Shown: positions 31,778 through 52,987, numbered from the stretch's first letter. The stretch: DNA of 55,198 nt from Candidatus Enterousia sp. (GCA_045648885.1 JAZROV010000012.1:1-55198), one strand, 5' to 3'. Made by a program: numbers and translations. Notes: generated from the letters alone by a model not told the origin.

Positions 31778-31822
31778 AAACTGTTTTTTACTGTGCGCCA
31801 CGCGCGCAGTAACGAAAATTAA

Positions 31823-31898
31823 TGGTGGAGCTGATCAGACTCGAACTGACGACCCCTTGCATGCCATGCAAGTGCTCTACCAACTGAGCTACAACCCC
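31823..31898 (-). tRNA. tRNA-Ala (GGC) with encoded CCA
   Basis: Acceptor GGGGTTG/CAGCTCC with G3:U70, anticodon stem CTTGC/GCAAG, loop ATGGCAT, T loop TTCGAGT and CCA. Confidence 0.95.
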
Positions 31899-39740: not shown

Positions 39741-40083
39741 TCAAACATCTTATCAAATTGGTTTATATTCTGAATTTCTGGCGCGATGGTTTTTACGTTT
39801 TCATGGGTACCGCATATTAAAAAGTCGATATATAACCGGTAAAAATACTAACCGCGCCGAAATAGACATCATCGCGCAGCGAAAGAACACTATCGTATTC
39901 ATAGAAGTCAAATCACGTCAAACTGTATCGGCTGCATGGGACGCGATTACACCGGCACAATCGGCACGGTTGCGACGTGCAGCCGAAACTTTTTTGATAA
40001 ACAAACACTGGACTGGAAATGCCAGATTTGATGTGATTGTTGTATGCGGGCACAAAATTCATTGGGCTAAAAACGCGATTTAA
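39730..40083 (+). CDS. yraN: YraN-family (UPF0102) endonuclease-like protein
   Basis: G...E..A..FL...GY.IL..RY pattern and EIDIIAQRKNTIVFIEVKSR. The start is set at MHSSQTSYQIG. Confidence 0.8.
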   Translation: MHSSQTSYQIGLYSEFLARWFLRFHGYRILKSRYITGKNTNRAEIDIIAQRKNTIVFIEVKSRQTVSAAWDAITPAQSARLRRAAETFLINKHWTGNARFDVIVVCGHKIHWAKNAI

Positions 40084-40340
40084 TTTTTTATAACTGCGCT
40101 TTTTATCAATGTGACATCTTCTTTGATTCCGTCTATTTTTAATTGCAATTGACCGATGCCAGATTCCAAAATAGTTGTTCTGTTTTCCAGTGATGTTATT
40201 CGCTGATCTTGGCGCGTCAATTCTTCCAAAGAAGAATCTTGGCGCGCAATCCAATAAACACATCCGAAAATCAAAGCCACCAGGAACCACCCGTCATGCA
40301 ATATTTCCAAAATATTTTTTATATTTTTTTGTTGTGGCAT
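40080..40340 (-). CDS. Small membrane protein with coiled-coil tail
   Basis: 86 aa with one TM helix (WFLVALIFGCVYWI), then heptad-like LEELTRQDQRITSLENRTTILESGIGQLQLKIDGIKEDV. Confidence 0.45.
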   Translation of the reverse strand: MPQQKNIKNILEILHDGWFLVALIFGCVYWIARQDSSLEELTRQDQRITSLENRTTILESGIGQLQLKIDGIKEDVTLIKSAVIKN

Positions 40341-40373
40341 GATTTCATAAATAATTTTCCATAAAAAAGTTGT

Positions 40374-40574
40374 TTATGTTTGATTATTCCCCCGTTGTAT
40401 TAAATTTTCGATTTGGTGAACCAGCGCATTTTGCGCGGCCCACCAACGTAATTCATTATCAGAAACATTCGGTCCAAAAACACGTTCCACGGTTATCGAC
40501 CGCAAATGCGCCAACACGCGTTTGCCGTCAAAACCAGAAAAAGTACGTGCATATTGTTTTTCAATTTCTGTCAT
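40374..40574 (-). CDS. Small phage protein (Bbp19-like?)
   Basis: 66 aa. The pattern F.G.DGKRVLAHLRSITVERVFGPNVSDNELRWWAAQNALV resembles small proteins next to the portal in BPP-1-type podoviruses (from memory). Confidence 0.35.
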   Translation of the reverse strand: MTEIEKQYARTFSGFDGKRVLAHLRSITVERVFGPNVSDNELRWWAAQNALVHQIENLIQRGNNQT

Positions 40575-40589
40575 TTTTATATTGTCCTT

Positions 40590-41813
40590 TTATATTGCAG
40601 ATTCTTCACGTGCCATTTGTGCAATTGGCGCCATGTATTTTAATTCTGCATCACTGTGCAAAGATATTTTTTCTATTAAACCGCGACGCGATAATATCTG
40701 CAGACCGCGTTCACATAACGGTTTAATAAATTCGTGCAGCAACCGACCGTATGTCGCACCCAAAATTCGTATCATATCAGAATTACGTGCTAATATTTCG
40801 GTCGCAGTCATTTCTTTGTCCGACAATAACCCAAGTCTGTCTGCCAGCAATGTATGACGAATACGATCACGTAAATCGCGCAGGACAATTTGCGAAACAT
40901 CAAAATCAGCTCCACTGGACAGCGGCGTCAGCCCAGAACTGCCAACTGCTTTCGGTATAATTGCACCCGGTGTCAAATTTATGTTTGATAAATTGATAAC
41001 ACCATCATCATCTGCCTGCCAGATACCACTGACCGCGATAGTCGCGTTTTTCAAAACTAATTCTACAACTTTGTTTGCGGTTTTTATATCTGGCAACGCG
41101 CGCAACACTGGGCCACGACCATATATTTCCCCACTGACCAACGACCAACGGAAAATTATATATGGATTTGTTTCAAATGTTCCACGTGCAACGATATTAT
41201 TTTCAATATCACCGCCAACATCTATCCATGCTGTAAAATCTTTTCCGATTAAAGATTGCACCAATCTGATTGGTGTTTGCGGGTTATTTTTTATCGTGTC
41301 TTTCATATTTTTCGGGAATATGAAATTCGGATATTTTTCCATAATATCACACGCAGGCAGCGAAGTTGTATGGAAAACCGCACCGTTTAATAAAGCTATA
41401 TCTGTCATTGGAATCGCAGTGAACGAAAAAGCAGAATCTGAACCGATTGGGTTTTCAGACATAAATAAACATGCTGTTCCTAAAACAACTAAATCAATAT
41501 AGCATTGGTGCACTGTTGTATAAAAATTCGAATCATTCAAATGCGCACGCAACATTGCTGTCGCGATTTCTGGGTTTGGAGATAAATCGCTTTCACGAAC
41601 CAGATTCACCCACAAAGATTCTGGTGGCGTCAACAGAGAATACATTGACGCAGCCAAATTGTCTACTGCATCCGCCGCAGTCGCATCAAACAAAGTTGCA
41701 ACATCTGAATCATCGGTCGGGATTGTGTATCGTATTGCTGATTTCCAACGGTTTAACCATATTTCCCGTTCGTCCAGCGCACGTTTATATAATTGCATAA
41801 GATTTTTTTGCAT
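40590..41813 (-). CDS. Portal (head-to-tail connector) protein, T7 gp8-type
   Basis: 407 aa. The N-terminal pattern ..R....WLNRWK.A.RYT.P......LFD.TA.DAVDNLAASMYSLLTPPESLW is typical of the podoviral head-tail connector family. It sits immediately downstream of the terminase nuclease ORF. Confidence 0.7.
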   Translation of the reverse strand: MQKNLMQLYKRALDEREIWLNRWKSAIRYTIPTDDSDVATLFDATAADAVDNLAASMYSLLTPPESLWVNLVRESDLSPNPEIATAMLRAHLNDSNFYTTVHQCYIDLVVLGTACLFMSENPIGSDSAFSFTAIPMTDIALLNGAVFHTTSLPACDIMEKYPNFIFPKNMKDTIKNNPQTPIRLVQSLIGKDFTAWIDVGGDIENNIVARGTFETNPYIIFRWSLVSGEIYGRGPVLRALPDIKTANKVVELVLKNATIAVSGIWQADDDGVINLSNINLTPGAIIPKAVGSSGLTPLSSGADFDVSQIVLRDLRDRIRHTLLADRLGLLSDKEMTATEILARNSDMIRILGATYGRLLHEFIKPLCERGLQILSRRGLIEKISLHSDAELKYMAPIAQMAREESAI

Positions 41814-41834
41814 TTGTTTTTTTCCTTTTGTTTT

Positions 41835-42683
41835 TTATATTTTGAATTCTGTGTTTGCTTTGATTAAACCGTTATTGGTTATCAAAGGCTTAACCGATAT
41901 CGGGTTCATCAGCAGCGCACCTGCAACTGCATCTAAACCGTCATCATGTTCTTTCGAACCAATCGGCGTCCATGCCAGCATTTCAGACAATAACATTGTT
42001 TGTTTTATCCGCGTGTGCATATACAGACGACCTGTGTTTAATATCGGTTCAATGGCATTCAAAATTCTGGTTTCTTTTTTGGTATGATTTGAAATTTGTA
42101 TGATATTTATTGTCATTTGACGCGCATTCGCAACACGTCGCATAATTTCAGGCAACGCATTACCAATACCGTTTATTTCTATACCAATGCGATTTATTCT
42201 GTGTTTTTGCATAAAATTCAGAACTGATTCACATTGGCTGGCCAGTGGGTGCAAATCGTCATCGTCAACCACCATATACAATATGTCGTGAACGAATACG
42301 TTTTTTAATTTGTCGTCACGATAAACCAGTGCGCAAACACTGCCGTCAGATGTGCTGTGGCCGGAAGACGGGTCCCAATACAAACACGCGCCATTTATAT
42401 GATGTTCACCGATTCGCGACGAATGAATATCAAAATCATCGTCATAAAAATGCACACTGCCCGGGTCCAGATGTATTCTTTCTTCTGCGACATATTCCAA
42501 CATCATCTGGGCAGAAAAATGTCGTGGTCCAACAATACGTTCTAATTCGTGTATTTTTTCAATGGGGAACAACTCTGGCCACGCCGGATTTCCAGCATCA
42601 TCGACGATTGGTATTTTTAATTGTTTATACCCACTTAAAAAAGGTATTGAATTATTAAAATTTTCGTTTAATCTAATGGACAT
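41835..42683 (-). CDS. Large terminase, C-terminal nuclease half (separate ORF)
   Basis: NPAWPELFPIEKIHELERIVGPRHFSAQMMLE is followed by an RNaseH-like nuclease with ACLYWDPS(S), RIGIEINGIG and the terminal HDDGLDAVAG motif. An internal ATG at 42683 is preceded by GGAG 8 nt upstream. The track ORF extends to 42758. Confidence 0.75.
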   Translation of the reverse strand: MSIRLNENFNNSIPFLSGYKQLKIPIVDDAGNPAWPELFPIEKIHELERIVGPRHFSAQMMLEYVAEERIHLDPGSVHFYDDDFDIHSSRIGEHHINGACLYWDPSSGHSTSDGSVCALVYRDDKLKNVFVHDILYMVVDDDDLHPLASQCESVLNFMQKHRINRIGIEINGIGNALPEIMRRVANARQMTINIIQISNHTKKETRILNAIEPILNTGRLYMHTRIKQTMLLSEMLAWTPIGSKEHDDGLDAVAGALLMNPISVKPLITNNGLIKANTEFKI

Positions 42684-44232
42684 GGACTTTACTCCGAAAA
42701 CTTTACCCACAAATTTAGAGGCCGAACAGGCAGTTCTGGCCGCGGTTTTAATGAACAACCGTGCTTTGGAATCTGTATCCGAATTTTTATTGCCAGAACA
42801 TTTTTCGCATCCTGCCCACCAAGAAATCTATAAATTGGCACTGCGGCAATTTTCGGCGGGTATTCCGTTTGATATAATCACTGCGAAAACATATCTGGAA
42901 CAACAGGGTGTTCTGGAATCTGTTGGTGGGGTTGAATACCTGACTAAATTGGCGGGCGCTGGTGCAACGGTTGTAAATGTTGAACATTATGGTCGTATTA
43001 TTTTTGACAATGCCCGTCGTCGTGATTTAATCGGTTTGGGTCAAAATATAATTGACAGCGCCTATACCGAAGACATCGATAACACCGTTGATTCGCAAAT
43101 TGAAAACGCAGAGCAAAAATTATTCAATTTGGCATCAACTGGGCAATCTGAACAAAACATAGTTTCATTGGCAGACGCATTAAAAGGCGCCCTGCAAGAG
43201 GCCGAAATCGCATACAAAGCCGATGGCAAATTGTCTGGTTTAACCACCGGTTTGGATGAATTAGATAAATCGTTAAGTGGCCTGCATCATTCTGATTTAA
43301 TCATTGTCGCCGGACGTCCAGGTATGGGAAAAACGACATTGGCTATGAACATTGCTTTTAATGCTGCTAATGCTATTTTCAACGGCCGTGCGAATGAAAA
43401 ATATCACGGTGCGGTTATATTTTTCAGTCTGGAAATGTCGAACCAGCAATTGGCCGCACGTGTGTTGTCTTCGCAATCTAAAATACCGGCATCCCACATG
43501 CGCGAGGGTAATTTGACAGACGAAGATTTCATGAAAATGTCTGAATATTCAAATGCGTTGTCAAAAATACCTTTGGTTATAGATGACACTGCCGATATGT
43601 CGGTACCCATGATAAAAACGCGCGCGCGTCGTATTGCTCGTAAATTTGGTGGTGTTGCGTTAATTGTTATCGACTATTTACAATTGATGAAATTGCCTGG
43701 GGGCAAAAACAGCGACAACCGCGTCCAAGAATTATCCACAATCACTCGTGGCTTGAAGATTCTGGCCAAAGAATTGGATGTTCCTGTTATAACTTTGTCG
43801 CAATTATCGCGCAGCGTCGAACAACGTGATGACAAACGACCAATATTGTCTGATTTGCGTGATTCAGGTTCTATTGAACAAGATGCAGATATCGTGATGT
43901 TCACGTATCGTGATGAATATTATTTAAGCAATCGCTCACCTGAAAATCGTCTGTCTGGTAATGCGCCACAGAAAGTGACTGAAAATTGGCAAAACCGTTT
44001 AGATAAATCTCGGAACAAAGCAGATATTATCATCGCGAAAAACCGTCATGGCAAACCAGAAACCGTGCATTTAAGTTTTGTCGGCGAATACTATCTGTTT
44101 GACAATTTGAACCAATTTGGACCTCAGCCGATTATACCGGACGATGGTTTTTCGGTGCAATATTCATCTAATGCTGATTCTGGGGTTCAAACTGTTGCTG
44201 ATATAAACGATATTCCTGATGATATAATTTAA
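42676..44232 (+). CDS. dnaB: Replicative DNA helicase DnaB with acidic C-terminal extension
   Basis: N-terminal LPTNLEAEQAVLAAVL, Walker A GRPGMGKTT, Walker B IVIDYLQLM, then LSQLSRSVEQR and SDLRDSGSIEQDAD. About 45 extra residues end in ..DINDIPDDII. Confidence 0.92.
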   Translation: MDMDFTPKTLPTNLEAEQAVLAAVLMNNRALESVSEFLLPEHFSHPAHQEIYKLALRQFSAGIPFDIITAKTYLEQQGVLESVGGVEYLTKLAGAGATVVNVEHYGRIIFDNARRRDLIGLGQNIIDSAYTEDIDNTVDSQIENAEQKLFNLASTGQSEQNIVSLADALKGALQEAEIAYKADGKLSGLTTGLDELDKSLSGLHHSDLIIVAGRPGMGKTTLAMNIAFNAANAIFNGRANEKYHGAVIFFSLEMSNQQLAARVLSSQSKIPASHMREGNLTDEDFMKMSEYSNALSKIPLVIDDTADMSVPMIKTRARRIARKFGGVALIVIDYLQLMKLPGGKNSDNRVQELSTITRGLKILAKELDVPVITLSQLSRSVEQRDDKRPILSDLRDSGSIEQDADIVMFTYRDEYYLSNRSPENRLSGNAPQKVTENWQNRLDKSRNKADIIIAKNRHGKPETVHLSFVGEYYLFDNLNQFGPQPIIPDDGFSVQYSSNADSGVQTVADINDIPDDII

Positions 44233-44298
44233 TTATTTTTCTTGCCAAACAAATAAATTTTTAATATCATTTTGTCAACATATACCAAGGAGTTTACG

Positions 44299-45306
44299 AT
44301 GGCCCTAGAAGAAATCATTTTTCCAAACAACATCAGAAACATTCGCGCCGCCAAAGGCATGAAAATGACTGAATTGGCACGCCAGGCGAATCTGTCGTTG
44401 TCTGCAGTATCGAAAATTGAAAAAGGTGTCAGACGTTTAAATCAAAAACAATTGTTAAATGTATGCACTATATTGGGCTGCAAATTATCTGACATTTTCA
44501 TTCACGAATCAGACGCAGTCGCCAATCAATGGCAAAACGAAATCAAACGCCGTTTAACGGACAACGAAGACAGCGGATTGAAAGTCTTTGGTTCCGGGCT
44601 TCGTAAAATTCGTCAACGCGCTGAAAAAACCATCGCAGAAACTGCGAAAATGGCCGGAATGACATTGTCTGTGTATCATAAAATCGAAGTTGGCCAACGC
44701 GAAGTTTATGAAGATGAAATCGATATTTTGGCGAAAACTTTTGGTTATACATCAAAACAATTGTTCGATGAAATCGCAAAACTTTATAACGCCGGCGAAT
44801 TGACCAAACAAATAAACAAAGTCAAAGAACGCGTCAAATCTGTTTTGGAACCTGGCAATCCAGAATCTGGATTGGATGTTCATGGTGGTCTTTTTGGTGC
44901 GCAATTGTATGATAATGCGCGCAAAAAATTGGTTCCTGTGTTCGGCAAACCTGATGGTAAATCAATCAAACTGAAAAAATCTGATGAAACGATGATTGTC
45001 GCTCCGGGGGCGTTGGAAGGCAAAAACGGAATCTATGCGATTATTCCGAATTCTAAGCGTTTGGGCGGATTTATCCCGGAAACATCATATATTTTCGCAG
45101 ACGCTAATGAAAAACCATCTGTGGGTGATTTAGCAGTATGCATTGATTCAGATTTTTCAAAAATGGATTCTGATGAAACAGTGTCTGCCCAGATTGCGGT
45201 GGTTCGTCAAGATTCACATGGCAAATTATATGGACATATATCTAATCCTGATGAAAAAATACATTTCCAAACGATGCATAAAATTGTTATGATTGTTATG
45301 AAATAA
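44299..45306 (+). CDS. Double XRE-type HTH regulator with S24/CI-like C-terminal beta domain
   Basis: RBS AAGGAG upstream of ATG 44299. HTH 1 is IRNIRAAKGMKMTELARQANLSLSAVSKIEKG. HTH 2 is LRKIRQRAEKTIAETAKMAGMTLSVYHKIEVG. The C-terminus is VPVFGKPDG....GDLAVCID, LexA/CI-like but with no clear Ser-Lys dyad. Confidence 0.6.
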   Translation: MALEEIIFPNNIRNIRAAKGMKMTELARQANLSLSAVSKIEKGVRRLNQKQLLNVCTILGCKLSDIFIHESDAVANQWQNEIKRRLTDNEDSGLKVFGSGLRKIRQRAEKTIAETAKMAGMTLSVYHKIEVGQREVYEDEIDILAKTFGYTSKQLFDEIAKLYNAGELTKQINKVKERVKSVLEPGNPESGLDVHGGLFGAQLYDNARKKLVPVFGKPDGKSIKLKKSDETMIVAPGALEGKNGIYAIIPNSKRLGGFIPETSYIFADANEKPSVGDLAVCIDSDFSKMDSDETVSAQIAVVRQDSHGKLYGHISNPDEKIHFQTMHKIVMIVMK

Positions 45307-45334
45307 TAAAAACTGTCAAGGAGGGACATAACAC

Positions 45335-45976
45335 ATGCAACAACAAGCACACATAATTGCCCAGCGTTTGTTAAACCTTTACCGTCAAGAACACGTGATA
45401 AATGGTGGCTGGACGGCCGTGAACAAGGTTTTAATTGCAGAATCTGATGATCCCCAGGTCATAGAAGAATTAAAAAAATTGCCGACTGGAAAACGTCTGG
45501 CGACGCACATCGATAATTTGCGCAGCGGTAAAACCCCGATGAATACAATTGAAAGCGAATTGTTACCATACGGCGGTTTGATTGCCAGCCAAGAAATGCG
45601 TTTTTCTTTGACAGACGAAGAAATAACCCAATTAAAATCTGCATTGGATACATTTGAAACCACACCTGAAAATTTAAAGAACATCAAAAATATGGAATGT
45701 GTCCGGAAATTTGGCGCAGACTGGGTAGATGCTATTAAATCTGTGTTATCAAAAGATCCTGAATATCTTGCAAAATGGGACAATGTTGTCCGCACATCAA
45801 AGGCATACCAGATGTGGGATTCTGCAAAACAGTTGGTGTCTGAAACACTGACCGAACGCAATCGCGCTCAAATTCAGGCCGACATGCCAGAATTCGAGAC
45901 GTATTTACCAATGTTTGGCGACCAAGGCCGTGCGATATTGGCAAAATTGCGAACATTTATGTCATCTGCATCTTGA
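45335..45976 (+). CDS. Hypothetical protein
   Basis: 213-aa helical-looking ORF with RBS AGGAGG upstream. It is the last gene of the plus-strand block and ends 3 nt before the stop of the convergent terminase ATPase ORF. Confidence 0.5.
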   Translation: MQQQAHIIAQRLLNLYRQEHVINGGWTAVNKVLIAESDDPQVIEELKKLPTGKRLATHIDNLRSGKTPMNTIESELLPYGGLIASQEMRFSLTDEEITQLKSALDTFETTPENLKNIKNMECVRKFGADWVDAIKSVLSKDPEYLAKWDNVVRTSKAYQMWDSAKQLVSETLTERNRAQIQADMPEFETYLPMFGDQGRAILAKLRTFMSSAS

Positions 45977-45979
45977 TTT

Positions 45980-46585
45980 TTACACTGAATATATCGTATC
46001 GCGCGCATGTGGGGTTCCGATATAGATAATCGTTCCATGTGGCGATAAAATAAAGTCTAATTCTCGCAATCTTTCGCGCAGGTTATCTCTTTTTTGCTGT
46101 GTGTTGCAAGTGTTTGGGACTTCGACGTCATCACATATCACTAAATCAGAGCGCATTCCTGTGATATTGCCAGAAATTCCCTGACAGATAACAGACGGTT
46201 CACGAATACCGATTGGACGTTTAATAGTTATTTTATGCGTACCCCACTCTTTTTTGACATCTGGTATTATGTCGGCGCACCACGGATGATTTTCCAGAAT
46301 ATTTTTTATATGCGAAACCATCCGCGATGCTAAATTCGATTCAGCAGACAAAATCAATATACGACTTTCTGGTCGAAAGCATAATACACAGGCTGCAAAA
46401 ATACCGACAACTGTTGATTTTCCTGAATGTCGAAAAGCGTTTAACAACCCACGATGCGGTTCATCATTTAATACTTCAATTAAAAACCGCATTATCTCTT
46501 GGTGATGTTTTGGTGTTGAAAACCCCAACAATCTGTTCCACGCGTCCAGAAAATCAAAGGCTTCCGTAATCGTCACTGTTTTCAT
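45980..46585 (-). CDS. Large terminase, N-terminal ATPase half (separate ORF)
   Basis: Walker A RHSGKST, Walker B DLVICDDVE, coupling motif IYIGTPHARD, then a stop after ..TIYSV. 201 aa. Confidence 0.75.
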   Translation of the reverse strand: MKTVTITEAFDFLDAWNRLLGFSTPKHHQEIMRFLIEVLNDEPHRGLLNAFRHSGKSTVVGIFAACVLCFRPESRILILSAESNLASRMVSHIKNILENHPWCADIIPDVKKEWGTHKITIKRPIGIREPSVICQGISGNITGMRSDLVICDDVEVPNTCNTQQKRDNLRERLRELDFILSPHGTIIYIGTPHARDTIYSV

Positions 46586-47102
46586 GATCTGCCGGTTCGG
46601 TTATAGAACCATAATCGTTTATCAATTTCGGCAATGCACCATCTAACACGTTCAACAGATTATAATACAAACCTAAGACGCCACCGCCGGAAAGTTTATC
46701 AGCGATTACATCCAACGTATAATCTATTTTAGTCAACAAATTATCGTGCACGTTTTCCCATCCAGCCAAATCGACATTCACACCCCATAAATCTTGCAAA
46801 GCCGCAAGCATAAAATTAAAATCTGAATTTAAATCTTCAGGATCTATTTTAACCGTCGGCTGGTAATCTATGACGCGGTCCAGCGAAATTTGGCGAAATA
46901 TATCGATATGTTTTCCAGACTCAGGGGCCGTATCAAATACCACTAAACCACCAACAAAATTACCATTTGGTGAAACAGCATATTGTGTTTCGTCCAACAA
47001 AGTATTATCAATTGCGACTTTGACATCTGCATTTTGAAAAAATGGAAAAGTGAACACAAACTCTGTGTCTGTGCCGTTGGCTGTGTATGAAATTTTATAC
47101 AT
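46554..47102 (-). CDS. T7 gp17-type tail-fibre N-terminal (tail-attachment) domain protein, no distal receptor-binding part
   Basis: YTANGTDTEFVFTFPFFQNADVKVAIDNTLLDETQYAV parallels the T7 fibre N-terminus (YQLDGSNRDFNIPFEYLARKFVVVTL..). Only 182 aa. Confidence 0.5.
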   Translation of the reverse strand: MYKISYTANGTDTEFVFTFPFFQNADVKVAIDNTLLDETQYAVSPNGNFVGGLVVFDTAPESGKHIDIFRQISLDRVIDYQPTVKIDPEDLNSDFNFMLAALQDLWGVNVDLAGWENVHDNLLTKIDYTLDVIADKLSGGGVLGLYYNLLNVLDGALPKLINDYGSITEPADHENSDDYGSL

Positions 47103-47111
47103 GATGTCCCC

Positions 47112-47459
47112 CTAGCCTGCTATTTTATCGATTTTTGACAACCACGATTTCAATAAATTTGGTCTTGTTGCTTTGGTATTTTGTATTTTTTGTAAATTAT
47201 TTTTGCGCTTGTCGTCATATGGCGCGCTGGTTTCATCGCGCAGACGTTTTAATACAGCCTGTTCAGAAAAACCGGTGCCTGAATTTCCTGTTGCACCGTA
47301 TTTAGCACGCTGGTTTGACAAAGCTTTTTTTATCAAATTTATTTTTGTTGCTTCATCTTGCGCCATTTCAGCCAAGATTTGTTGCCGCTGGTTTTCAGCC
47401 GTTTTTTTGGCATCTTTGTAATCTAAAACTTTTGTGACATCGGATACAAGTTGTCCCAT
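47112..47459 (-). CDS. Small Lys/Gln-rich virion-module protein
   Basis: 115 aa, helical and basic, lying between the nozzle-like and fibre-stub genes. Confidence 0.4.
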   Translation of the reverse strand: MGQLVSDVTKVLDYKDAKKTAENQRQQILAEMAQDEATKINLIKKALSNQRAKYGATGNSGTGFSEQAVLKRLRDETSAPYDDKRKNNLQKIQNTKATRPNLLKSWLSKIDKIAG

Positions 47460-47478
47460 AGAAAACTCCTTTGTTTTT

Positions 47479-49185
47479 TTATATTGAATATATGCCGTCC
47501 ACAGTCACAGACAACACGGTCATTGGTAATTGTTCGCTGCTGGAAATTGTCCATAACGGTTGCATAGTATCGCTTTGCGTTCCCAACAAATTGATAGACA
47601 AATCACCGCTGAAACCTGGGCTGTCGCTGGCATAGGCATAATTTGGTATCTCTACACGATATCCATTCACGAATAATGTCTTTGTATTTAACACCCGCAT
47701 AGATATTTTTCGCGCACGTAATTTTTTCGGTGAATGACCGTTAACTATCATTGGAAACGCGGATATTGTATAATCAAAATCATACGCACCTGCATCATTC
47801 AGACAATCTGAATCAAATTTTTCTAGATAATTTGTCGTGCCACGTTTTACGATGACATATGTATAATTATCCAAAACCGCAACATATTTAAACAAACCAT
47901 CTGTTTTATATGTCGCCCATGCAGAAATATTTTGATGCTTGTTCAACACTGCCATCACACCATCATTCATAACAATAAATAATTGATGAGAATTTTGGTT
48001 GTACGCCATACTGATTGGGTTGTTTATTAAATGTTTTGCAAATGGACATAAATCAACTGCATTGTAATGTTCGCTAAGCGCATCCAAATCTAATTCGCGA
48101 ATGTCTTTGCCAGATTGAGATACAAACACCGTTCGTGAATCTATGTTTTGTGGTGGCAGATATGCGCTGGAAAAACACCCAATACTTGTATGCTGTTTTA
48201 TATCAACATTTGACGGTGTCAACGGAGAATTCGAAATCGCCCATTCACCCTGACTTGTCAATATTTGTAATTTATCACTGCTGACCATTGTCCAAATTTG
48301 GTGGTGTTGAGCAGACAACAGTGTCACATATATTGCTTCGTCATCCAGACCAGTCCCTGCGCTGAAATTATCATGATTACCGACTTGCGACATCCAAATA
48401 TAATTTGGTGCAGATTTCGTAGCACCAAAAATCAATCGATTTTGATGGAACGAAACACAACTTGGCCATCCGCGTTTATCATTGAATACAGATTCATACC
48501 AATCATAAATCGGACTGCCGGGCACAGAATAATTACCGTTTATATGAACTGTGGCTACACGTGCATCTTGAACTGCTGCGACAACCCACTGTTTGTCATC
48601 AACATATAATTGTTCGCCAACCGCATCTTCGGTCCAAAAATCTGCACTGGTTGTGAATGTCGCATAATTATTACCCAAAGCGCTAGAAGTGATGGTAATA
48701 GATATTCCGGCGGCATCATCAAATTTCATAAACGGCATATTTATATCACCGTTTGATTTTACTGTGAAAGCAAATTGCGACAATGCGAAACCACTGGCGG
48801 TTTTAGTCAACACACGTGGTGAATAATCAGGATGCACAAAAAATATTTTATTAAAACGTTGGGCATACTGTAATTTAGACAAATCTGTTCCGGCCCATGG
48901 TGCATTTATTGTCGTGATTCTGGTATCATTACTGTAAATTTCCATTGATAAATTATATATCACCAACAAATATTTTTCTGTTTCTGATATCGGAAAAGGC
49001 ACCAATATTGCACCATTGGAAACATTTTTAATTTTTTGTAAACCACATCTGCGTTTTAAACCGCCAGATTCTAAAACATCTACATTTTCCAGTTTTGCCA
49101 GTCCATTATTATCATTTGTTGCATAAAATTCAGATGACATTTCACCACAGTTAAAAGAATTTTGTGTTTTAAGAAAATTTCCCAT
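47479..49185 (-). CDS. Tail tubular protein B / nozzle-like protein
   Basis: 568 aa. The N-terminus QNSFNCGEMSSEFYA....L.NVDVLESGGLKRRCG resembles the conserved start of podoviral nozzle proteins, and the remainder is beta-rich. It follows the adaptor-like gene. Confidence 0.45.
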   Translation of the reverse strand: MGNFLKTQNSFNCGEMSSEFYATNDNNGLAKLENVDVLESGGLKRRCGLQKIKNVSNGAILVPFPISETEKYLLVIYNLSMEIYSNDTRITTINAPWAGTDLSKLQYAQRFNKIFFVHPDYSPRVLTKTASGFALSQFAFTVKSNGDINMPFMKFDDAAGISITITSSALGNNYATFTTSADFWTEDAVGEQLYVDDKQWVVAAVQDARVATVHINGNYSVPGSPIYDWYESVFNDKRGWPSCVSFHQNRLIFGATKSAPNYIWMSQVGNHDNFSAGTGLDDEAIYVTLLSAQHHQIWTMVSSDKLQILTSQGEWAISNSPLTPSNVDIKQHTSIGCFSSAYLPPQNIDSRTVFVSQSGKDIRELDLDALSEHYNAVDLCPFAKHLINNPISMAYNQNSHQLFIVMNDGVMAVLNKHQNISAWATYKTDGLFKYVAVLDNYTYVIVKRGTTNYLEKFDSDCLNDAGAYDFDYTISAFPMIVNGHSPKKLRARKISMRVLNTKTLFVNGYRVEIPNYAYASDSPGFSGDLSINLLGTQSDTMQPLWTISSSEQLPMTVLSVTVDGIYSI

Positions 49186-49203
49186 GAATGTTCTCCCTGA
49201 ATT

Positions 49204-49722
49204 TTAAAATCTTGAATTTATCAAAGAAAAATCATCAATATTTGATTGATTTGATGTTGTGCTGTCTATAAATTTTGCTGATTGGAATTCTGATTCATAT
49301 AATGCAGTCATCATTTTGAAAACATTTGCATCACCAACCAATGGGATACAAAATTCCATTGCCAGTTTTGTTGCAACCAAACTTGCAAAATAACTTGGGA
49401 AACATTCGGTTTCAACACGCACGATTGCAGTAATATCTAATGAATCTGATTGAATGACTATTTTATTTCCTATGATTTTTCCTTCGCTTTTGATGATTCT
49501 TAAAACATCATTTGGAATTACAAAATCACCATCTGAATTTTTATTCAAAGTAATATTTTGCGTTGCAAAACGCCACGGGAACATAGACAACAATGTGTCC
49601 ACAACCGAATCAAACAAAGTTCTGGCTATTTGCGCAGACGCAGAATCTTCACGCAATGATTGAATTGGTTTTTCGCCCAATTTCAACAAAGCCATCGAAC
49701 ATAAATCTATTTTTGTAAACAT
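49204..49722 (-). CDS. Tail tubular protein A / adaptor-like protein
   Basis: 172 aa. The pattern IDLCSMALLKLGEKPIQSLREDSASAQIARTLFDSVVDTLLSMFPWRFA is recurrent in podoviral gp11-like adaptors. Confidence 0.45.
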   Translation of the reverse strand: MFTKIDLCSMALLKLGEKPIQSLREDSASAQIARTLFDSVVDTLLSMFPWRFATQNITLNKNSDGDFVIPNDVLRIIKSEGKIIGNKIVIQSDSLDITAIVRVETECFPSYFASLVATKLAMEFCIPLVGDANVFKMMTALYESEFQSAKFIDSTTSNQSNIDDFSLINSRF

Positions 49723-49792
49723 ATTTCGTCCCTTTTGATAGCAAAAAGGGCCGCATTACACGGCCCAATTACAAACATAAAACGTTGCGTTT

Positions 49793-50023
49793 TTAAGATA
49801 ACGCACCAACAGTAATCGAATCTGCAGCAACAGCCAATACTTTGATTGATGTGCCATTTGATCCGTTTATGATGATGATATCACCGCTGTTCATCAAAGA
49901 TTTTACATTGGCGAAATAGCCAGACGCTGTAATCGTTGCCAATGTTGCATTTTCTTTGTAATGCCACAACGTAAAACCGTTTGCGTACGCAATCACAGAC
50001 AAATTTTTATTTTGAAATGCCAT
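49793..50023 (-). CDS. Small protein downstream of capsid (possible decoration/cement protein)
   Basis: 76 aa, beta-rich, 35 nt after the capsid gene. Confidence 0.35.
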   Translation of the reverse strand: MAFQNKNLSVIAYANGFTLWHYKENATLATITASGYFANVKSLMNSGDIIIINGSNGTSIKVLAVAADSITVGALS

Positions 50024-50057
50024 TTGATTTTCCTTTTGGTTATGTTATGAATTTTTT

Positions 50058-50885
50058 TTAAGCGGCGTCATCATCGCATTTGATACGAACGATACCTTCT
50101 GCGTCAATCAAGACTGCGCCTTGAGACATGCTGTTGCTGATAAAGTGCGCAGCACGTTCACCATGCCATGTGATGTCTGTTTTTACTTCTTGACCACATG
50201 CGTGCCCAATGCTGGATGCATGATAGATAAAGCAATCACGGTCATCAGTGTTGGCTAATGGCAAAGAATTGCACAATATCCAATTGATGCCCAACCATTT
50301 TCTAGATTCACAACCATCGACTAATGGTGTTGCACCGCCGACATAATCAGCAGATACAAATTCGTTCATAGACATCAATTCATTCCATTGATGCACACCG
50401 ACTACTGCAAATCTGCGACCATCATCTGGAACATCGTTTTCATTTAATTTTTCCACAGCAGACATAATCAATGCTTTGGTTAAACCAGTTGAATAATCGC
50501 CAACATACTGTGTAGCATTATTCATTGCTGCGATAATCAATTCATCTGTTTTGCGTCCCAACGCGTATGCACCGGCCGACGCAACAACACGACGTTCATC
50601 AACATTGGTTTTCAATTCATCCAACGCATCAATCCAATCGCCTGCATAGTAATCTTGTAATGTGCATTCAACCGGAGTATGATTCAAATTCATCACTGGA
50701 ACAATACCATGACGCGATTTAGTGCTGGCGATACCTTTGCCAACTTTTTGGAAAGTTGTAGACATTCCAACGACCCCAGATTTGCTGCGAATCGTAGAAC
50801 GTAATTTTGTGCCCATTTGCTGATAAGCCAAATGAACATCTGCTTCAAATTGTTTGATAAACACTTGATCTACAGAAAGAGACAT
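50058..50885 (-). CDS. Major capsid protein
   Basis: 275 aa. VDQVFIKQFEADVHLAYQQMGTKLRSTIRSKSGVVGMSTTFQKVGKGIA..HG.VPVMNL.H..VECTL.DYYA matches a capsid family common in alphaproteobacterial podo-type prophages (from memory). Its position after the scaffold fits. Confidence 0.7.
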   Translation of the reverse strand: MSLSVDQVFIKQFEADVHLAYQQMGTKLRSTIRSKSGVVGMSTTFQKVGKGIASTKSRHGIVPVMNLNHTPVECTLQDYYAGDWIDALDELKTNVDERRVVASAGAYALGRKTDELIIAAMNNATQYVGDYSTGLTKALIMSAVEKLNENDVPDDGRRFAVVGVHQWNELMSMNEFVSADYVGGATPLVDGCESRKWLGINWILCNSLPLANTDDRDCFIYHASSIGHACGQEVKTDITWHGERAAHFISNSMSQGAVLIDAEGIVRIKCDDDAA

Positions 50886-51020
50886 AAAAAATCCTTTTTG
50901 TTTTTTTAATTAAAATAAACGCCTTGACCAGGCGACACCACATTTTGAAATGATGGTTATGCGAAAAATTCGCGCCATAAAAACAAAATAAAAAACGGGT
51001 CCAAAACGGATTATCCAATA

Positions 51021-51099
51021 AAAAATTCAGTCAGACATAAAATAATATCTGACTGAACAATTTATCAAAAAAGCCCCAAAATCCTACAATTCTGGGGCT
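51021..51099 (-). terminator. Two tandem rho-independent terminators after the H1-like gene
   Basis: On the minus strand: AGCCCCA..TGGGGCT followed by T6 (51067-51099), and TTCAGTCAGA..TCTGACTGAA followed by T5 (51021-51057). Confidence 0.7.
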
Positions 51100-51126
51100 A
51101 AAAATGAATATAATAAATATTATTTA

Positions 51127-51450
51127 TTATTTTCTTTTTGCAACTTTTTTTGCAGCTGGTTTTTTCGCAGCAACTTTTTTAGCAGCTGGTTTTTTAGCAA
51201 CTACTTTTTTTGCAACTGGTTTTTTTGCAGCTGGTTTTTTCGCAACTACTTTTTTAGCAGCTGGTTTTTTCGCAACTACTTTTTTTGCAACCGGTTTTTT
51301 AACCGCAACTTTTTTTGCAGGTGCTTTTTTAGCAACTGGTTTTTTCGCAGCTGGTTTTTTAACTGCAACTTTTTTCACTGGTGCTTTTTTCGCAGCTGGT
51401 TTCGCAGCAGCTTTTGCGCAACCACATTTTTTCTTAGAACCAAAGAACAT
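51127..51450 (-). CDS. Histone H1-like Lys/Ala-rich repeat protein (Hc1/AlgP/BpH1-like nucleoid protein)
   Basis: 107 aa made of AKKPA/AKKVV pentapeptide repeats. It has a strong RBS (AAGGAGAG), a putative own promoter (TTGAAT..TAGAAT, approx 51490-51520) and a double terminator. Confidence 0.75.
   Translation of the reverse strand: MFFGSKKKCGCAKAAAKPAAKKAPVKKVAVKKPAAKKPVAKKAPAKKVAVKKPVAKKVVAKKPAAKKVVAKKPAAKKPVAKKVVAKKPAAKKVAAKKPAAKKVAKRK
51140..51420. repeat. Imperfect ~15-nt (5-codon) tandem repeat inside the H1-like gene
   Basis: gcagctggttttttc / gcaactactttttt units are reiterated about 18 times on the plus strand. Confidence 0.8.
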
Positions 51451-51556
51451 AATTCTCTCCTTTTAAGTTTTTGGATAGAACAAAATTATTTTGTTCATGA
51501 TTCTATTTTATATGAATTGAATTCAATAGTCCAGAATAAAAGTTAAAAAATATATT

Positions 51557-52213
51557 TTATGAATATAATTTTTTAAAACCGTTTTCAATTTTACGAACAT
51601 ATTCTGGATCTTGGTCGCGCCAATATTTTGGATCGCGCATCATGTTACGCAAATCATCATCAGATAAATTTTCAGCAACATTTTTATCGGTTAAAACTTC
51701 TGGTTCAAACGATTGCATCATCTTGTACACGCCTTGGATTCCCTGGGGTGTAGAGCATAATTCATCAAACGCATCGGCGGGTAAAAATTTTTCACCGAAC
51801 GCTTTTATTTCACGCAAAGCATCATTCATTTTTTGTGTTGAACCGAAAAATTTTTTTAATTCATTCATTGCATTTGTTTCGTTTTGCAAATCGAATAAAT
51901 TTTTTATTGTTGGTTGTAAAATTTTTTCTGCGATGTCATAAATTTTTTCAACTTGTTTATTTGTTAAACCAATTTCGTGAAATTGATTACGAACCGATTC
52001 GTCATCGAACAAAGCATTTGTTGGATATTCCGACGCATCATCTGGAACACCGATTGCATGATTAAATTTTTGTTTTGTTGCATCATCACTATCATCGTTC
52101 GGCACAGAAATCATAGACCCCATCTTTTTTTCCAATTCACAATATGATTTGACCAGGGCTTGTGTATTTAATTCGCCATTTTCATCAAGAAATTTTTCAG
52201 GGACATTATCCAT
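51557..52213 (-). CDS. Capsid scaffolding protein
   Basis: 218 aa, acidic and helical. The N-terminus PEKFLDENGELNTQALVKSYCELEKKMG is typical of podoviral scaffold proteins. Confidence 0.5.
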   Translation of the reverse strand: MDNVPEKFLDENGELNTQALVKSYCELEKKMGSMISVPNDDSDDATKQKFNHAIGVPDDASEYPTNALFDDESVRNQFHEIGLTNKQVEKIYDIAEKILQPTIKNLFDLQNETNAMNELKKFFGSTQKMNDALREIKAFGEKFLPADAFDELCSTPQGIQGVYKMMQSFEPEVLTDKNVAENLSDDDLRNMMRDPKYWRDQDPEYVRKIENGFKKLYS

Positions 52214-52427
52214 TCTTTTTTCCTTTGGTTGAAGATTCTTGTTTCAAAAAATAAATTCCGCCCAACGTGAACACAGTTTGCAAAACAGAAAACAAATCTT
52301 GTTCACCGATTAAATACGCCCCGACAGCAGAAACAATACCGACGCTGGCGATTACATAGGTTTTACGACCTGATAAATATCCACCTTTGATAAATTTGTT
52401 CATGATTTTTTCCTTTGTTTGCGTCAA
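52206..52427 (-). CDS. Holin-like small membrane protein
   Basis: 73 aa with two TM helices and a charged C-terminus (KQESSTKGKKNG). It overlaps the hydrolase gene by 4 nt. Confidence 0.45.
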   Translation of the reverse strand: MTQTKEKIMNKFIKGGYLSGRKTYVIASVGIVSAVGAYLIGEQDLFSVLQTVFTLGGIYFLKQESSTKGKKNG

Positions 52428-52834
52428 AGATAAAACAGCATATCATCAATTTCTGCAATATAACCGCGCGCCACGGCCCATTGTGGCAAAACATTCGCAT
52501 GATGAAATTTTGTTGCGCCGAACACAGAATCTTTTAAATTACCGCGAATCATTTTTTGCACAACGCGCAGACACATTTGAAATTTTCTGTCATTCGCAGG
52601 AACATTTATATATTCATGGCGCGGCGAATTTTTATCCAGCACATCAAAAACAGTATTATCATTTATGATATCTTCGAACGATTTATCGAATTTCATATGA
52701 ATGTTGTAAATGACGGACGCCATAGCTTCCACGACTGGCAACGAATGTGCAAATGTTTCTGCATAAATAATTCGTGCGATTTTATATGGCACGCGTTGCG
52801 AATCATCTTTATTTTCAATCAAAGTTATTTGCAT
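52424..52834 (-). CDS. Cell-wall hydrolase (SleB/Hydrolase_2-like)
   Basis: 136 aa. ARIIYAET......EAMASVIYN and ..ATKFHHANVLPQWA resemble the cell wall hydrolase family pattern (A..I.GEA...........V..N...; ..FH....P.W). Confidence 0.55.
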   Translation of the reverse strand: MQITLIENKDDSQRVPYKIARIIYAETFAHSLPVVEAMASVIYNIHMKFDKSFEDIINDNTVFDVLDKNSPRHEYINVPANDRKFQMCLRVVQKMIRGNLKDSVFGATKFHHANVLPQWAVARGYIAEIDDMLFYL

Positions 52835-52865
52835 GTTTGACCTGTTGTTTTTTTATTAAAAAAAA

Positions 52866-52938
52866 CACCCACAAAAATGTGGGTGTGATGAAAGGCCAAG
52901 AATAAAAAAATCCGCACACTTGGCGGACAAATTCTTCA
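52866..52938 (-). terminator. Two minus-strand terminator hairpins between birA and the phage-derived cluster
   Basis: On the minus strand: TCCGC..GCGGA followed by T7 (52914-52938), and CACCCAC-attttt-GTGGGTG followed by T8+ (52866-52895). Confidence 0.55.
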
Positions 52939-52987
52939 TTCTTGATGTTTCACATTATATCACAAATTGACATGAAAGTCAAGATGT

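Follow-up and report, generated by a model that had tools for sequence, protein, structure and literature searches.

A T7-type large terminase gene in two pieces around dnaB, within a phage-derived gene cluster of the order Rs-D84

In the 55,198-nucleotide stretch of a Candidatus Enterousia sp. genome analysed here (the window), the gene of a T7-type large terminase subunit (TerL) is present as two open reading frames, TerL_N and TerL_C. They lie 3.3 kb apart around a block of genes that includes dnaB, and each has its own start and stop codons in 52 of 52 species of the order Rs-D84. This alphaproteobacterial order of gut bacteria comprises Ca. Enterousia and its relatives; every genome used was a MAG, and the host genomes are mostly smaller than 1 Mb (PMC12306168). 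The whole cluster to which the two genes belong is probably a domesticated GTA-like element with a two-chain terminase, of T7-like podophage descent and vertically inherited in Rs-D84. All coordinates of the split gene given in the original prediction hold, and what comparison has chiefly added is the context, a reduced genome in which a domesticated phage cluster is passed on vertically.

The two TerL pieces and their junction

TerL_N is the final gene of a run that begins with a Hydrolase_2 gene and continues through scaffold, capsid and tail genes, while TerL_C leads a second run completed by the portal, Bbp19-like and p86 genes (Table 1). The TerL_N start lies within the end of the tail-fibre gene, the two sharing 32 nt, and 21 nt separate the TerL_C stop from the portal gene. 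The intervening block is packed edge to edge between the two pieces, as had been noticed earlier: only 3 nt separate the end of the unk213 stop (45976) from the stop codon of TerL_N, and the TerL_C and dnaB starts overlap in a CATG palindrome common to the TerL_C ATG (42683) and one of the two candidate dnaB ATGs (42682, the other being 42676). In the window translation TerL_N ends as ..GTPHARDTIYSV*. TerL_C is contained in an ORF open from 41835 to 42758 (minus strand), with GGAG 8 nt upstream of its ATG.

Table 1. Features of the phage-derived cluster and of the genes nested in it (window coordinates)
Feature	Position	Strand	Matches and remarks
Cell-wall hydrolase, endolysin-like	52424..52834	-	PF07486 Hydrolase_2 1.3e-7; phrog_938 endolysin; first cluster gene
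Scaffolding/capsid-assembly protein	51557..52213	-	PF05396 Phage_T7_Capsid 1.8e-10; syntenic in Rs-D84 loci
Major capsid protein	50058..50885	-	PF19821 1.8e-72; phrog_3437
Tail tubular protein A-like	49204..49722	-	PF17212 Tube; phrog_394
Tail protein, tubular B-like	47479..49185	-	phrog_376 4e-96
115-aa conserved protein	47112..47459	-	follows tail gene; in 51/52 loci
Short tail-fibre protein	46554..47102	-	N-terminal adaptor domain only; phrog_1640 6e-16
TerL_N	45980..46585	-	201 aa; RecA-like core of terminase ATPase
unk213, all-alpha protein	45335..45976	+	closes dnaB-regulator-unk213 run; convergent with TerL_N
Double XRE-type HTH regulator	44272..45306	+	PF01381 twice: residues 21-74, ~106-166
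dnaB, cellular-type replicative DNA helicase	42676..44232	+	NF006606, TIGR00665
Dual-use stretch	42624..42683	both	TerL_C codons 1-20 (-); DNA directly upstream of dnaB start (+)
TerL_C	41835..42683	-	further ATPase-domain beta-strand and helices, linker, RNase H-like nuclease
Portal (head-tail connector)	40590..41813	-	407 aa; PF12236 1.2e-77
Bbp19-like small phage protein	40374..40574	-	PF25181 1.8e-8
p86	40080..40340	-	86 aa; last cluster gene

The two pieces match adjacent parts of a single profile, phrog_38, TerL_N at positions 276-459 and TerL_C at 468-707. TerL_N scores 218.9 (cutoff 150) with NCBIfam NF033889 termin_lrg_T7, over profile positions 4-189 of 500, and aligns to residues 46-212 of T7 gp19; TerL_C alone scores 106, under the cutoff of 150 of this full-length model, and is matched by Pfam PF22530 and PF17289. 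As previously stated, the pieces add up to a TerL of normal length (201 + 282 = 483 aa, with intact homologues of 470-510 aa). The concatenated sequence gives one collinear, end-to-end alignment with intact phage and prophage TerLs (40-43% identity, 94-100% coverage) in which no conserved column is lost; 282 aa is also the gene-caller length of TerL_C in most short homologues among the matches listed. Walker A (RHSGKST), Walker B with the catalytic Glu (LVICDDVE) and motif III (GTP) are all located in TerL_N, where RHSGKST, LVICDDVE and IGTPH stand in invariant columns of an alignment with 18 intact homologues. The acidic nuclease motifs WDPS, IEINGIG and DDGLDAVA are kept in invariant TerL_C columns of the same alignment. 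Together with the open frames and the purifying selection described below, these motifs bear out the claim that neither half is degraded.

The break falls in a gap-rich variable segment after ATPase motif III, at about residue 212 of T7 gp19: TerL_N stops two residues past a conserved Y, and the first 14 residues of TerL_C align to a variable loop of the intact homologues. The break site was shown in this way to be a variable, indel-tolerant surface loop just past motif III. Because of this position TerL_C holds not only the nuclease but also the final ~70 residues of the ATPase domain, and the earlier description of a clean split into ATPase and nuclease was inaccurate, since the break runs through the ATPase domain. 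Modelled with AF2, the fused TerL_N+TerL_C reached a pLDDT of 86.6, with residues 207-211, that is, the junction, as the sole internal low-confidence stretch, and its top Foldseek matches were the TerLs of PhiV-1, T7, T4 and Sf6. Fold, motifs and total length are thus those of intact T7-type TerLs (NF033889, PHROG 38; PDB 4bij, 8dgc), in which ATPase and nuclease form a single polypeptide, unlike the two ORFs found here. Short PHROG families labelled TerL match each half (phrog_4758, phrog_5573), which means that two-ORF TerLs may occur in phages also.

Conservation and selection of the split across Rs-D84

Relatives were examined in a first scan of 52 species and a second scan of 236 loci, 79 of which were read. 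In the first, TerL_N was intact (195-238 aa) in 52/52 species, with its stop at an identical alignment position and the type of stop codon varying among relatives. TerL_C was found at 46 loci, and at 43 of these an open frame spanned the entire query; no frameshift or internal stop was seen in the cluster genes of the first-scan loci. An identical break with both frames open in all 52 species rules out chance. The gene order was mostly identical in the 79 loci read from the second scan, none of which contained an unbroken terL. These data show that terL was broken in the common ancestor of the sampled lineages and has been two separate genes ever since; recent insertion or decay is not the origin of the split. 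The start of TerL_C is equally constant, ttcGGAGtaaagtccATG or a one-base variant (Shine-Dalgarno plus ATG) being present in 45 of 45 sequences examined.

The pieces do not have to be neighbours. In MAGs Cyl330_bin36 and Hm464_bin176 they lie on separate contigs (L050 + L219; L043 + L230), both being kept where dnaB no longer flanks them (L043, L050), and in termite-gut lineages the content and orientation of the DNA between the halves vary while the break point is constant. At three loci (L143, L238, L286) the left module has suffered deletions that spared dnaB, the TerL_C and portal frames being open despite the loss of capsid genes, tail genes or most of TerL_N. Some lineages can do without the element, unless these MAG contigs are misassembled.

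Values of dN/dS, which are only rough because dS is near saturation, ranged from 0.065 to 0.20 in all 11 phage-derived cluster genes tested. They were ~0.085 for TerL_N and ~0.18 for TerL_C (about twofold faster evolution of the latter), ~0.065 for the portal, ~0.07 for the capsid and ~0.115 for p86, and in the nested block 0.105 for DnaB, ~0.115 for the regulator and ~0.20 for unk213. By this measure, both terL pieces were shown to be under purifying selection order-wide. The genes also diverge together: the dN distances of TerL_N correlate with those of TerL_C (0.93), portal (0.94) and DnaB (0.90), those of both halves with portal and capsid at 0.85-0.95, those of the regulator with the portal at r = 0.88, and those of the cluster genes with dnaB at 0.75-0.90.

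The cluster, its nested genes and related systems

The T7-like head-tail-packaging genes form a cluster of ~12.7 kb (40080-52834), syntenic across Rs-D84 together with its neighbours birA and yraN, one at either end, and more than 50 species, at 50-90% amino-acid identity, share its layout and flanks. Two features by which GTAs and viriforms are recognized were found here, namely a fixed locus with vertical inheritance (birA/yraN synteny, co-variation of dN with dnaB) and structural genes under purifying selection, as far as approximate dN/dS values with dS near saturation can tell. The major capsid protein is 70-98% identical among loci, and the 115-aa protein weakly matches the same-position gene of outgroup prophages. 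The tail-fibre protein matches PF03906 only weakly, under the Pfam cutoff, and its gene is missing from a substantial minority of species; the portal, at 407 aa, is shorter than the sole outgroup portal measured (L056, 487 aa). With a fibre cut to its adaptor domain or absent and a shorter portal, a normal adsorbing particle is not assured. The p86 protein, 85-86 aa long in 40 loci, has no family match in Pfam or NCBIfam; its N-terminal hydrophobic helix followed by a coiled coil might, as a guess, be holin- or spanin-like. Scans of the cluster and block proteins brought up neither an integrase nor a phage replication domain, and no homologue of the small terminase was found in the window or at any of the 52 loci. 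IMG/VR holds the cluster only as fragments of 4-14 kb, called viral, and no whole phage genome bearing it.

The nested genes lie on the strand opposite to the TerL halves in most lineages. DnaB scores 604.7 with NF006606 (cutoff 540), 502 with TIGR00665 (cutoff 385) and 418 with TIGR03600 phage_DnaB (under the cutoff of 499), and these profile scores place it as cellular and not phage type. Its closest relatives outside Rs-D84, among the matches listed, belong to other alphaproteobacterial assemblies (43-50% identity), and no cluster-gene homologues were found in the flanks read around those dnaBs. Of the CI-like regulator originally proposed, the XRE-type double HTH is present but no S24 domain was found in a Pfam scan; matches to solved structures are restricted to the HTH domains and the C-terminal half is uncharacterised. 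The third protein, unk213, was shown to be lineage-specific. It gave nothing above threshold in Pfam, NCBIfam, PHROG or PADLOC, has 1150 homologues (~213 aa long among the matches listed), and its AF2 model (pLDDT 83) had a best Foldseek E-value of 0.6.

From the gene layout, the control sequences of dnaB had been deduced to lie within coding DNA of the terminase, and an excess of synonymous conservation supports this. TerL_C codons 1-20 show a synonymous-codon identity of 0.82-0.85, compared with 0.56 gene-wide, whereas in other genes this identity is back at baseline beyond codon 10; nucleotides of the stretch are near-invariant inside clades. The observations support a dnaB upstream control region embedded in these codons. 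For the TerL_C-portal run there was no convincing promoter candidate: a promoter scan performed at chance level, and dnaB itself has no synonymous constraint past codon 10.

Outgroup prophages of Rhodospirillales, Micavibrio and Magnetospirillum share with the Rs-D84 cluster the portal, Bbp19 (likewise after the portal), scaffold, capsid, tail tube A and B, and Hydrolase_2 genes. In contrast to the two genes of Rs-D84, their TerL is an intact single polypeptide, with no dnaB nearby. Their gene order also differs: portal-Bbp19-scaffold-capsid-tail-TerL-lysin, with the Hydrolase_2 gene after TerL and a small ORF before it (in phage Piluca it carries a small-terminase annotation), as opposed to the lysin first and the portal module after TerL_C in Rs-D84.

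RcGTA is an HK97-like, siphovirus-like element, while the T7-type portal, scaffold, tail tubular proteins and TerL of Rs-D84 point to podoviral, T7-like ancestry. The Rs-D84 cluster further differs from RcGTA in its two TerL genes, a small terminase that was not detected, a truncated or absent fibre, and the nesting of the cell's dnaB and a regulator. What it shares with RcGTA-like GTAs is a head-tail-packaging cluster in which integration and replication genes are not detected, a fixed chromosomal site, vertical inheritance and purifying selection (PMC9662315; PMC9254644). Like the present cluster, RcGTA-like ones are kept even where alphaproteobacterial genomes are very small, as in the reduced genomes of endosymbionts (PMC9662315; PMC9254644).

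Alternative explanations and the proposed role

Divided genes of comparable architecture are known whose products are rejoined. The TerL-family gene UL15 of herpesviruses consists, in the whole viral family, of two exons flanking ~3.5 kb of opposite-strand genes and yields one protein through mRNA splicing (PMC3079670), and the split-intein "fractured" genes include a gp17-type terminase (PMC2677866). It is nevertheless extremely improbable that DNA rearrangement, as one of the original options had it, or RNA or protein splicing restores a single TerL in Rs-D84 at particle production. Searches of the block ends for direct or inverted repeats, and of the block proteins (DnaB, the double-HTH protein and the all-alpha protein) for recombinase or endonuclease domains, found none, and excision would remove dnaB. 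No Rfam intron or other Rfam match occurs in the window, and intron halves would lack room, with a 3 nt gap on one side and dnaB coding sequence on the other. No split-intein halves were found at the break, and intein halves would need extra residues, whereas the two pieces sum to the intact length. In contrast to UL15, start and stop codons are present in both pieces (a stop of variable type in TerL_N, an invariant SD and ATG in TerL_C), and the genes between them are of cellular or regulatory kind instead of virion genes. In two genomes the halves are on separate contigs. Another parallel is NrdA of phage Aeh1, split by a homing endonuclease gene (PMC2677866): as in this and the fractured genes, inserted DNA turned one enzyme gene into two ORFs whose chains, in Rs-D84 by inference, associate. 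Here, in contrast, the inserted DNA carries an essential host gene with a regulator, and the arrangement is stable order-wide, not sporadic. An ordinary prophage, whether an active temperate phage integrating beside dnaB or one whose terL was killed by a recent insertion, deserves as little credence, even if the genes are unmistakably phage-derived and IMG/VR pipelines label the fragments viral. Against it stand the constant layout and flanks, the co-divergence with dnaB, the integrase and replication domains undetected among the scanned proteins, the small terminase undetected in the window, the ~9.4 kb of phage genes, too small for an autonomous phage, and the lack of frameshifts and internal stops.

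The original prediction had also raised the capture of an essential gene; the phage genes would then be dead weight, persisting because their deletion would take dnaB along and kill the cell. Such a role is very unlikely, although the helicase is of the cellular replicative type and sits tight against both halves, its start overlapping that of TerL_C and its upstream region lying inside that gene. Linkage cannot account for open frames or for dN/dS values of 0.07-0.2 over ~9 kb of phage genes and would protect at most the first 60 nt of TerL_C; moreover, the three partial deletions spare dnaB, and the halves persist where dnaB does not flank them (L043, L050). Capture is therefore neither needed nor sufficient. 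Somewhat less improbable, but still unlikely, are separate non-packaging jobs, for example in defence or the processing of DNA, with TerL_N working alone as an ATPase and TerL_C alone as an RNase H-like nuclease. The halves can indeed be unlinked, TerL_C evolves faster, and its frame and that of the portal survive at the three deleted loci. However, TerL_N would then lack the end of its own ATPase fold, which travels on TerL_C, co-divergence is close between the halves and extends to portal and capsid, and in nearly all loci read both are found inside a strongly selected head-tail-portal set.

A functional two-subunit terminase, the remaining option of the original prediction, fits the intact and selected halves, their co-divergence, their persistence when unlinked and the invariant SD and ATG, as judged from sequence comparison. 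In the domesticated GTA-like element that we favour, a cluster of T7-like podophage descent is inherited vertically like a host locus. The model of the fused chain suggests that TerL_N and TerL_C would reassemble non-covalently, TerL_C completing the ATPase fold of TerL_N and supplying the nuclease to give a working terminase. By analogy with GTAs, the cluster may still make a phage-like particle to the benefit of the host. Throughout the order, a phage packaging-enzyme gene has been retained in two pieces around the cell's replication helicase gene, selection keeping both intact.

Organisation and completeness of the divided terminase

In the window, the T7-type large terminase is encoded by two separate genes, TerL_N and TerL_C, standing on either side of a block formed by dnaB, a double-HTH regulator and unk213 on the opposite strand. 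The coordinates and layout described in the original prediction were borne out by the ORF list and the sequence (see the table). The unk213 stop and the stop codon of TerL_N lie 3 nt apart, the portal gene starts 21 nt past the TerL_C stop, and the TerL_C ATG, with a GGAG 8 nt upstream, has the palindrome CATG in common with the dnaB ATG at 42682.

Features of the phage-derived cluster and its upstream region, listed in gene order from the cluster head; dN/dS values are pairwise Nei-Gojobori medians, using only pairs with dS < 1.5
Feature	Position	Strand	Description	dN/dS
Sigma-70-like site	52982..52954	minus	TTGACT-17-TATAAT with upstream TG	
Two terminator-like hairpins	52928-52910; 52886-52865			
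Hydrolase_2 lysin	52424-52834	minus	1st in cluster	
T7-type scaffold	51557-52213	minus	2nd	
107-aa ORF	51127-51450	minus	RBS AAAAGGAGAGAATTATG	
Two strong terminator-like hairpins	51099-51072; 51058-51025			
Capsid	50058-50885	minus	3rd	0.07
Strong terminator-like hairpin	49748-49766	minus	GGGCCGTGTAATGCGGCCC, then T-run	
Tail tube A	49204-49722	minus	4th	
Tail protein	47479-49185	minus	5th	
p115		minus	6th	
Fibre N-terminal domain		minus	7th	
TerL_N	45980..46585	minus	8th; 201 aa, C-terminal end IYIGTPHARDTIYSV	0.085
unk213	45335..45976	plus	213 aa, without family match	
Regulator	44272..45306	plus	344 aa, two XRE-type HTH domains	
dnaB	ATGs 42676 and 42682, stop 44232	plus		0.105
Second terminase ORF, whole frame	41835..42758	minus	TerL_C ATG at 42683	0.18 (TerL_C)
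T7-type portal		minus		0.065
Bbp19-like protein		minus		
86-aa protein		minus		
yraN			host neighbour	0.15

When joined, the two halves amount to 483 aa and are collinear in one piece with intact phage TerLs, for example that of Acinetobacter phage TPWB-05 (98% coverage). Alignment with 18 intact homologues of 468-510 aa (40-43% identity) showed that all invariant columns are kept, among them those of Walker A, Walker B, motif III and the acidic motifs of the nuclease (WDPS, IE.NGIG and DDGLDA), which upholds the view of a normal-length TerL with little or nothing missing. Right after the invariant GTPH..D.IY comes a variable stretch rich in gaps, and it is here that the gene is broken. The phrog_38 profile is matched at adjoining stretches by TerL_N (276-459) and TerL_C (468-707), and TerL_N alone scores 218.9 bits against the NCBIfam T7-type TerL equivalog (cutoff 150; profile positions 4-189 of 500). 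Residues 46-213 of T7 gp19 (PDB 4bij, 8dgc) are matched by query residues 38-202.

The AF2 model of the fused sequence has a pLDDT of 86.6, its only weak internal stretch (207-211) being the junction, and a Foldseek search with this model returned the PhiV-1, T7, T4 and Sf6 terminases and aligned the isolated P74-26 TerL ATPase domain across ~280 columns. The motif III strand (180-190) is followed in the model by a long loop, a strand (221-225) and helices (242-260), with the nuclease beginning at ~279. This order of elements, together with the Foldseek alignment of the ATPase domain, indicates that the ATPase domain itself is divided. TerL_N comprises the RecA-like core, and the other ATPase-domain elements, the linker and the nuclease lie in TerL_C. 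The proposed clean division into ATPase and nuclease holds as far as two ORFs are concerned, but not in placing the break at the domain boundary.

Spread, selection and independence of the halves

A first scan with TerL_N as query, taking one genome per species, yielded 52 species, all of them MAGs, with hosts assigned to Ca. Enterousia or to unnamed Alphaproteobacteria and 'Rickettsiales' and sampled from rumen and from horse, mouse, human, bird and termite guts. The same split, for which a search among relatives had been proposed, was present in every species: TerL_N measures 195-238 aa and stops at a common alignment position in 52/52. Of the 46 loci with a TerL_C match, 43 have it open across the full query and at least two of the remaining three are interrupted by the contig end; gene callers assign TerL_C 282 aa in most of the short homologues listed from a database of 5.8 billion proteins. 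A second scan, with the TerL_C alignment as query, gave 236 loci, of which 79 were read; the full order capsid-tailA-tailB-p115-(fibre)-TerL_N / unk213-regulator-dnaB / TerL_C-portal-Bbp19-p86 was found in 55. The type of the TerL_N stop codon varies and the tail past TIY ranges from 2 to about 40 residues, as expected of a break in a tolerant loop. That the split of terL is ancient and selected is close to certain.

The dN/dS values are rough because dS is near saturation, all being nonetheless far below 1. The dN distances of TerL_N and TerL_C are correlated with each other (r = 0.93), with those of the portal (r = 0.94 and 0.85, respectively) and with those of DnaB (r = 0.90 and 0.75), a pattern that fits co-inheritance of the entire locus.

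The more distant lineages from termite guts share this break point but differ in its context. Between the halves lies dnaB alone, on the same strand (locus L049), or dnaB plus a large unknown gene (L051, L052), while TerL_N is directly followed by the portal in L050 and by unrelated genes in L043; Pfam matches are mostly absent among the intervening genes of these loci. In the MAGs of the latter two (Cyl330_bin36 and Hm464_bin176), TerL_C is on a separate contig (L219 and L230, respectively). In several lineages dnaB is inverted onto the terminase strand, with the regulator-unk213 pair still convergent with TerL_N. The two halves behave like independent genes. The TerL_C start, ttcGGAGtaaagtccATG, is identical or one base off in the 45 sequences examined (45/45); this conservation is partly due to the DnaB N-terminus on the opposite strand, but the synonymous positions are frozen as well.

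The portal (window 40590-41813) measures 407 aa in Enterousia and ~450 aa in termite-gut lineages, against 487 aa in L056, the single outgroup prophage for which it was measured; the shorter C-terminal end is a conserved feature of the clade. Left-module deletions were observed in three loci: in L143 (570-1261) capsid residues 1-85 abut TerL_N residues 173-199 and the portal is absent, in L238 (4410-4652) only TerL_N residues 146-201 remain, and in L286 (3753-4639) tail tube A abuts TerL_N, the portal being open in the last two. Each of these loci still has open frames for dnaB, the regulator, unk213 and TerL_C. These deletions correspond either to real decay in some lineages or to MAG misassembly.

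The nested dnaB block and the surrounding cluster

In TerL_C codons 1-20, that is, the 60 nt directly upstream of the dnaB start, synonymous codon identity between same-amino-acid sequence pairs reaches 0.82-0.85 vs 0.56 gene-wide, a comparable rise being confined to codons 1-10 in other genes. This excess supports the earlier proposal that dnaB control sequences lie inside terminase coding sequence. The converse, TerL_C-portal control inside dnaB, was not seen; dnaB constraint is at background past codon 10. A simple scan of the region found as many promoters as expected from shuffled sequence, and a terminator scan found none after TerL_N and none after unk213. The best sigma-70-like site of the region is located just past the birA stop, with two terminator-like hairpins between it and the first cluster gene (start 52834), and this minus-strand segment (52865-52982) resembles a leader controlled by attenuation or antitermination. 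Another strong hairpin of this kind lies between capsid and tail tube A. Terminator-like sites after phage major capsid genes are common.

DnaB scores above the curated cutoffs for cellular replicative helicases (NF006606, 604.7 vs 540; also TIGR00665) and below the phage DnaB cutoff. Among the matches listed, its closest relatives outside the order are other alphaproteobacterial DnaBs (43-50% identity), and no homologues of cluster genes were found in the flanks read of those genes. The regulator combines two HTH_3 domains with an uncharacterised C-terminal half; PDB matches cover the HTH domains only, and there is no similarity to the S24-type repressor of the outgroup prophage L056. For unk213 there are 1150 homologues, about 213 aa long and without an informative Pfam domain among the matches listed. 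Nothing above threshold was obtained for it in Pfam, NCBIfam, PHROG, PADLOC, a PDB sequence search or tblastn against phages, and its AF2 model, confident and all-alpha, has no structural match (best Foldseek E-value 0.6). A contig of human faecal origin, listed as an unverified bacteriophage (L217; MT835708.1, 5601-9580), has a gene for a 38% homologue of the regulator, followed by one for an 804-aa protein that is similar at its N-terminus to residues 1-60 of unk213; TrbL/VirB6-like genes and an M23 peptidase gene are also present. The regulator and its partner may therefore form a module outside the cluster.

The cluster is flanked by birA and the yraN/UPF0102 gene, and both arrangement and flanks recur across the order. 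The nearest intact TerLs belong to prophages of Rhodospirillales, Magnetospirillum, Micavibrio and others (at least 467 stretches confirmed), with the order portal-Bbp19-scaffold-capsid-tubeA-tubeB-(fibre)-small ORF-TerL-Hydrolase_2 and, in those listed, no dnaB near the intact TerL. In Rs-D84, by contrast, the portal module stands behind TerL, the lysin is at the cluster head, and the fibre is shortened to 182 aa or missing. Neither the small ORFs that stand before intact TerL (L055, L056) nor the small terminase annotated in phage Piluca has a homologue in the window or in any of the 52 loci. The cluster proteins scanned yielded no domain of an integrase or of phage replication. In IMG/VR the cluster occurs only as fragments of 4-14 kb. 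On the 1.65 Mb chromosome of a small-genome outgroup alphaproteobacterium (L055/L057; OZ244156.1, 3887-12296), tail tube A, tail tube B, fibre, intact TerL and Hydrolase_2 lie between tRNA synthetase genes, without portal, scaffold or capsid within 10 kb. The locus could be a further copy of this type of phage, partly dispersed or domesticated.

The 107-aa ORF between scaffold and capsid has a strong RBS and encodes near-pure Lys/Ala/Pro/Val repeats (AKKPAAKKPVAKKVVAKK...), a composition reminiscent of histone H1 or Hc1. It is followed by two strong terminator-like hairpins, and a similar repeat region occupies the same position in many Rs-D84 loci. Its product may condense DNA in the particle or belong to the nucleoid. 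Rfam applied to the whole window identified two tRNAs only (31703-31898, minus), without introns or riboswitches, and the GC-rich stretches 1-1000 and 28000-30000 are not rRNA.

Candidate explanations, precedents and meaning

The best-supported reading of the whole, and a probable one, is that TerL_N and TerL_C would be translated separately and reassemble into a two-chain terminase. Taking all functional steps from MAG sequence, we infer that the two chains reassemble and that particles are produced. The original prediction thus stands in part, in its two-chain terminase, but not in rejoining by rearrangement or in addiction through a captured dnaB. Rejoining via rearrangement, intron or intein is extremely improbable: there is no recombinase domain, no intron and no spare residue, each half has its own stop and start signals, and the halves are unlinked in two genomes. 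The block ends show only short chance repeats, none at 42683 or 45980; the intein or intron model was rejected on length and junction sequence. Addiction through dnaB is very unlikely, leaving the purifying selection unexplained and being contradicted by the three loci in which partial deletions spared dnaB. That the halves were exapted to separate functions is unlikely as well: the ATPase fold is divided between them, and both vary closely in step with portal and capsid. An ordinary prophage, dead or alive, is hardly credible in view of the synteny, the co-divergence and the gene content.

Taken together, the features of the surrounding element bear the hallmarks of phage domestication of the gene transfer agent (GTA) kind (PMC9662315, PMC9254644), here with a T7-like podoviral ancestry. 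Host genomes of the order measure 0.67-1.6 Mb, mostly <1 Mb (PMC12306168); that study mentions neither phage, GTA nor terminase, and the cluster goes unmentioned in the two Enterousia genome papers covered (this one and its citing context). In herpesviruses, the two exons of the TerL homologue UL15 flank ~3.5 kb of opposite-strand genes (PMC3079670), a gene architecture parallel to the Rs-D84 split, the UL15 halves being however joined by splicing. Precedents for broken enzymes are NrdA of phage Aeh1, known as 'genes-in-pieces', and a gp17-type terminase with a split intein (PMC2677866); homing endonucleases or inteins take part in those cases, and neither occurs here. Two short PHROG families, phrog_4758 and phrog_5573, match the respective halves, and phages, too, may have TerLs made of two ORFs. 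Domesticated phage clusters and genes in pieces are kinds already known; uncommon are a packaging ATPase broken within its catalytic domain, yet conserved across an order, and an essential replication gene that sits within the cut and has its control region in the coding sequence of the terminase.

A more speculative reading, rather unlikely as a whole, regards the nesting as functional and not accidental: a new podovirus-derived GTA with an obligate two-chain terminase, whose two gene runs would interlock with the dnaB-regulator operon through overlapping transcription, both convergent and divergent. From the promoter upstream of Hydrolase_2, strong late transcription would run past the TerL_N end, reading through antisense across unk213, regulator and dnaB into TerL_C-portal, a switch that at one stroke would shut off the regulator and the replicative helicase and make the packaging machinery complete. 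If so, a producing cell would halt replication just at packaging onset.

If the two-chain terminase is true, it would represent a natural, long-lived viral packaging motor made of two polypeptides and cut within the ATPase domain, offering a ready-made system in which to study how the RecA-like core communicates with the remainder of the ATPase domain and with the nuclease. It is unusual for an essential replication gene to have its control region within a terminase gene, an architecture that would let metatranscriptomes test directly whether replication is coupled to particle production. The cluster would be a previously undescribed domesticated T7-like phage cluster, maintained throughout a whole order of Alphaproteobacteria from gut and rumen, and the fact that these phage genes take up ~1% of genomes mostly <1 Mb implies a benefit.
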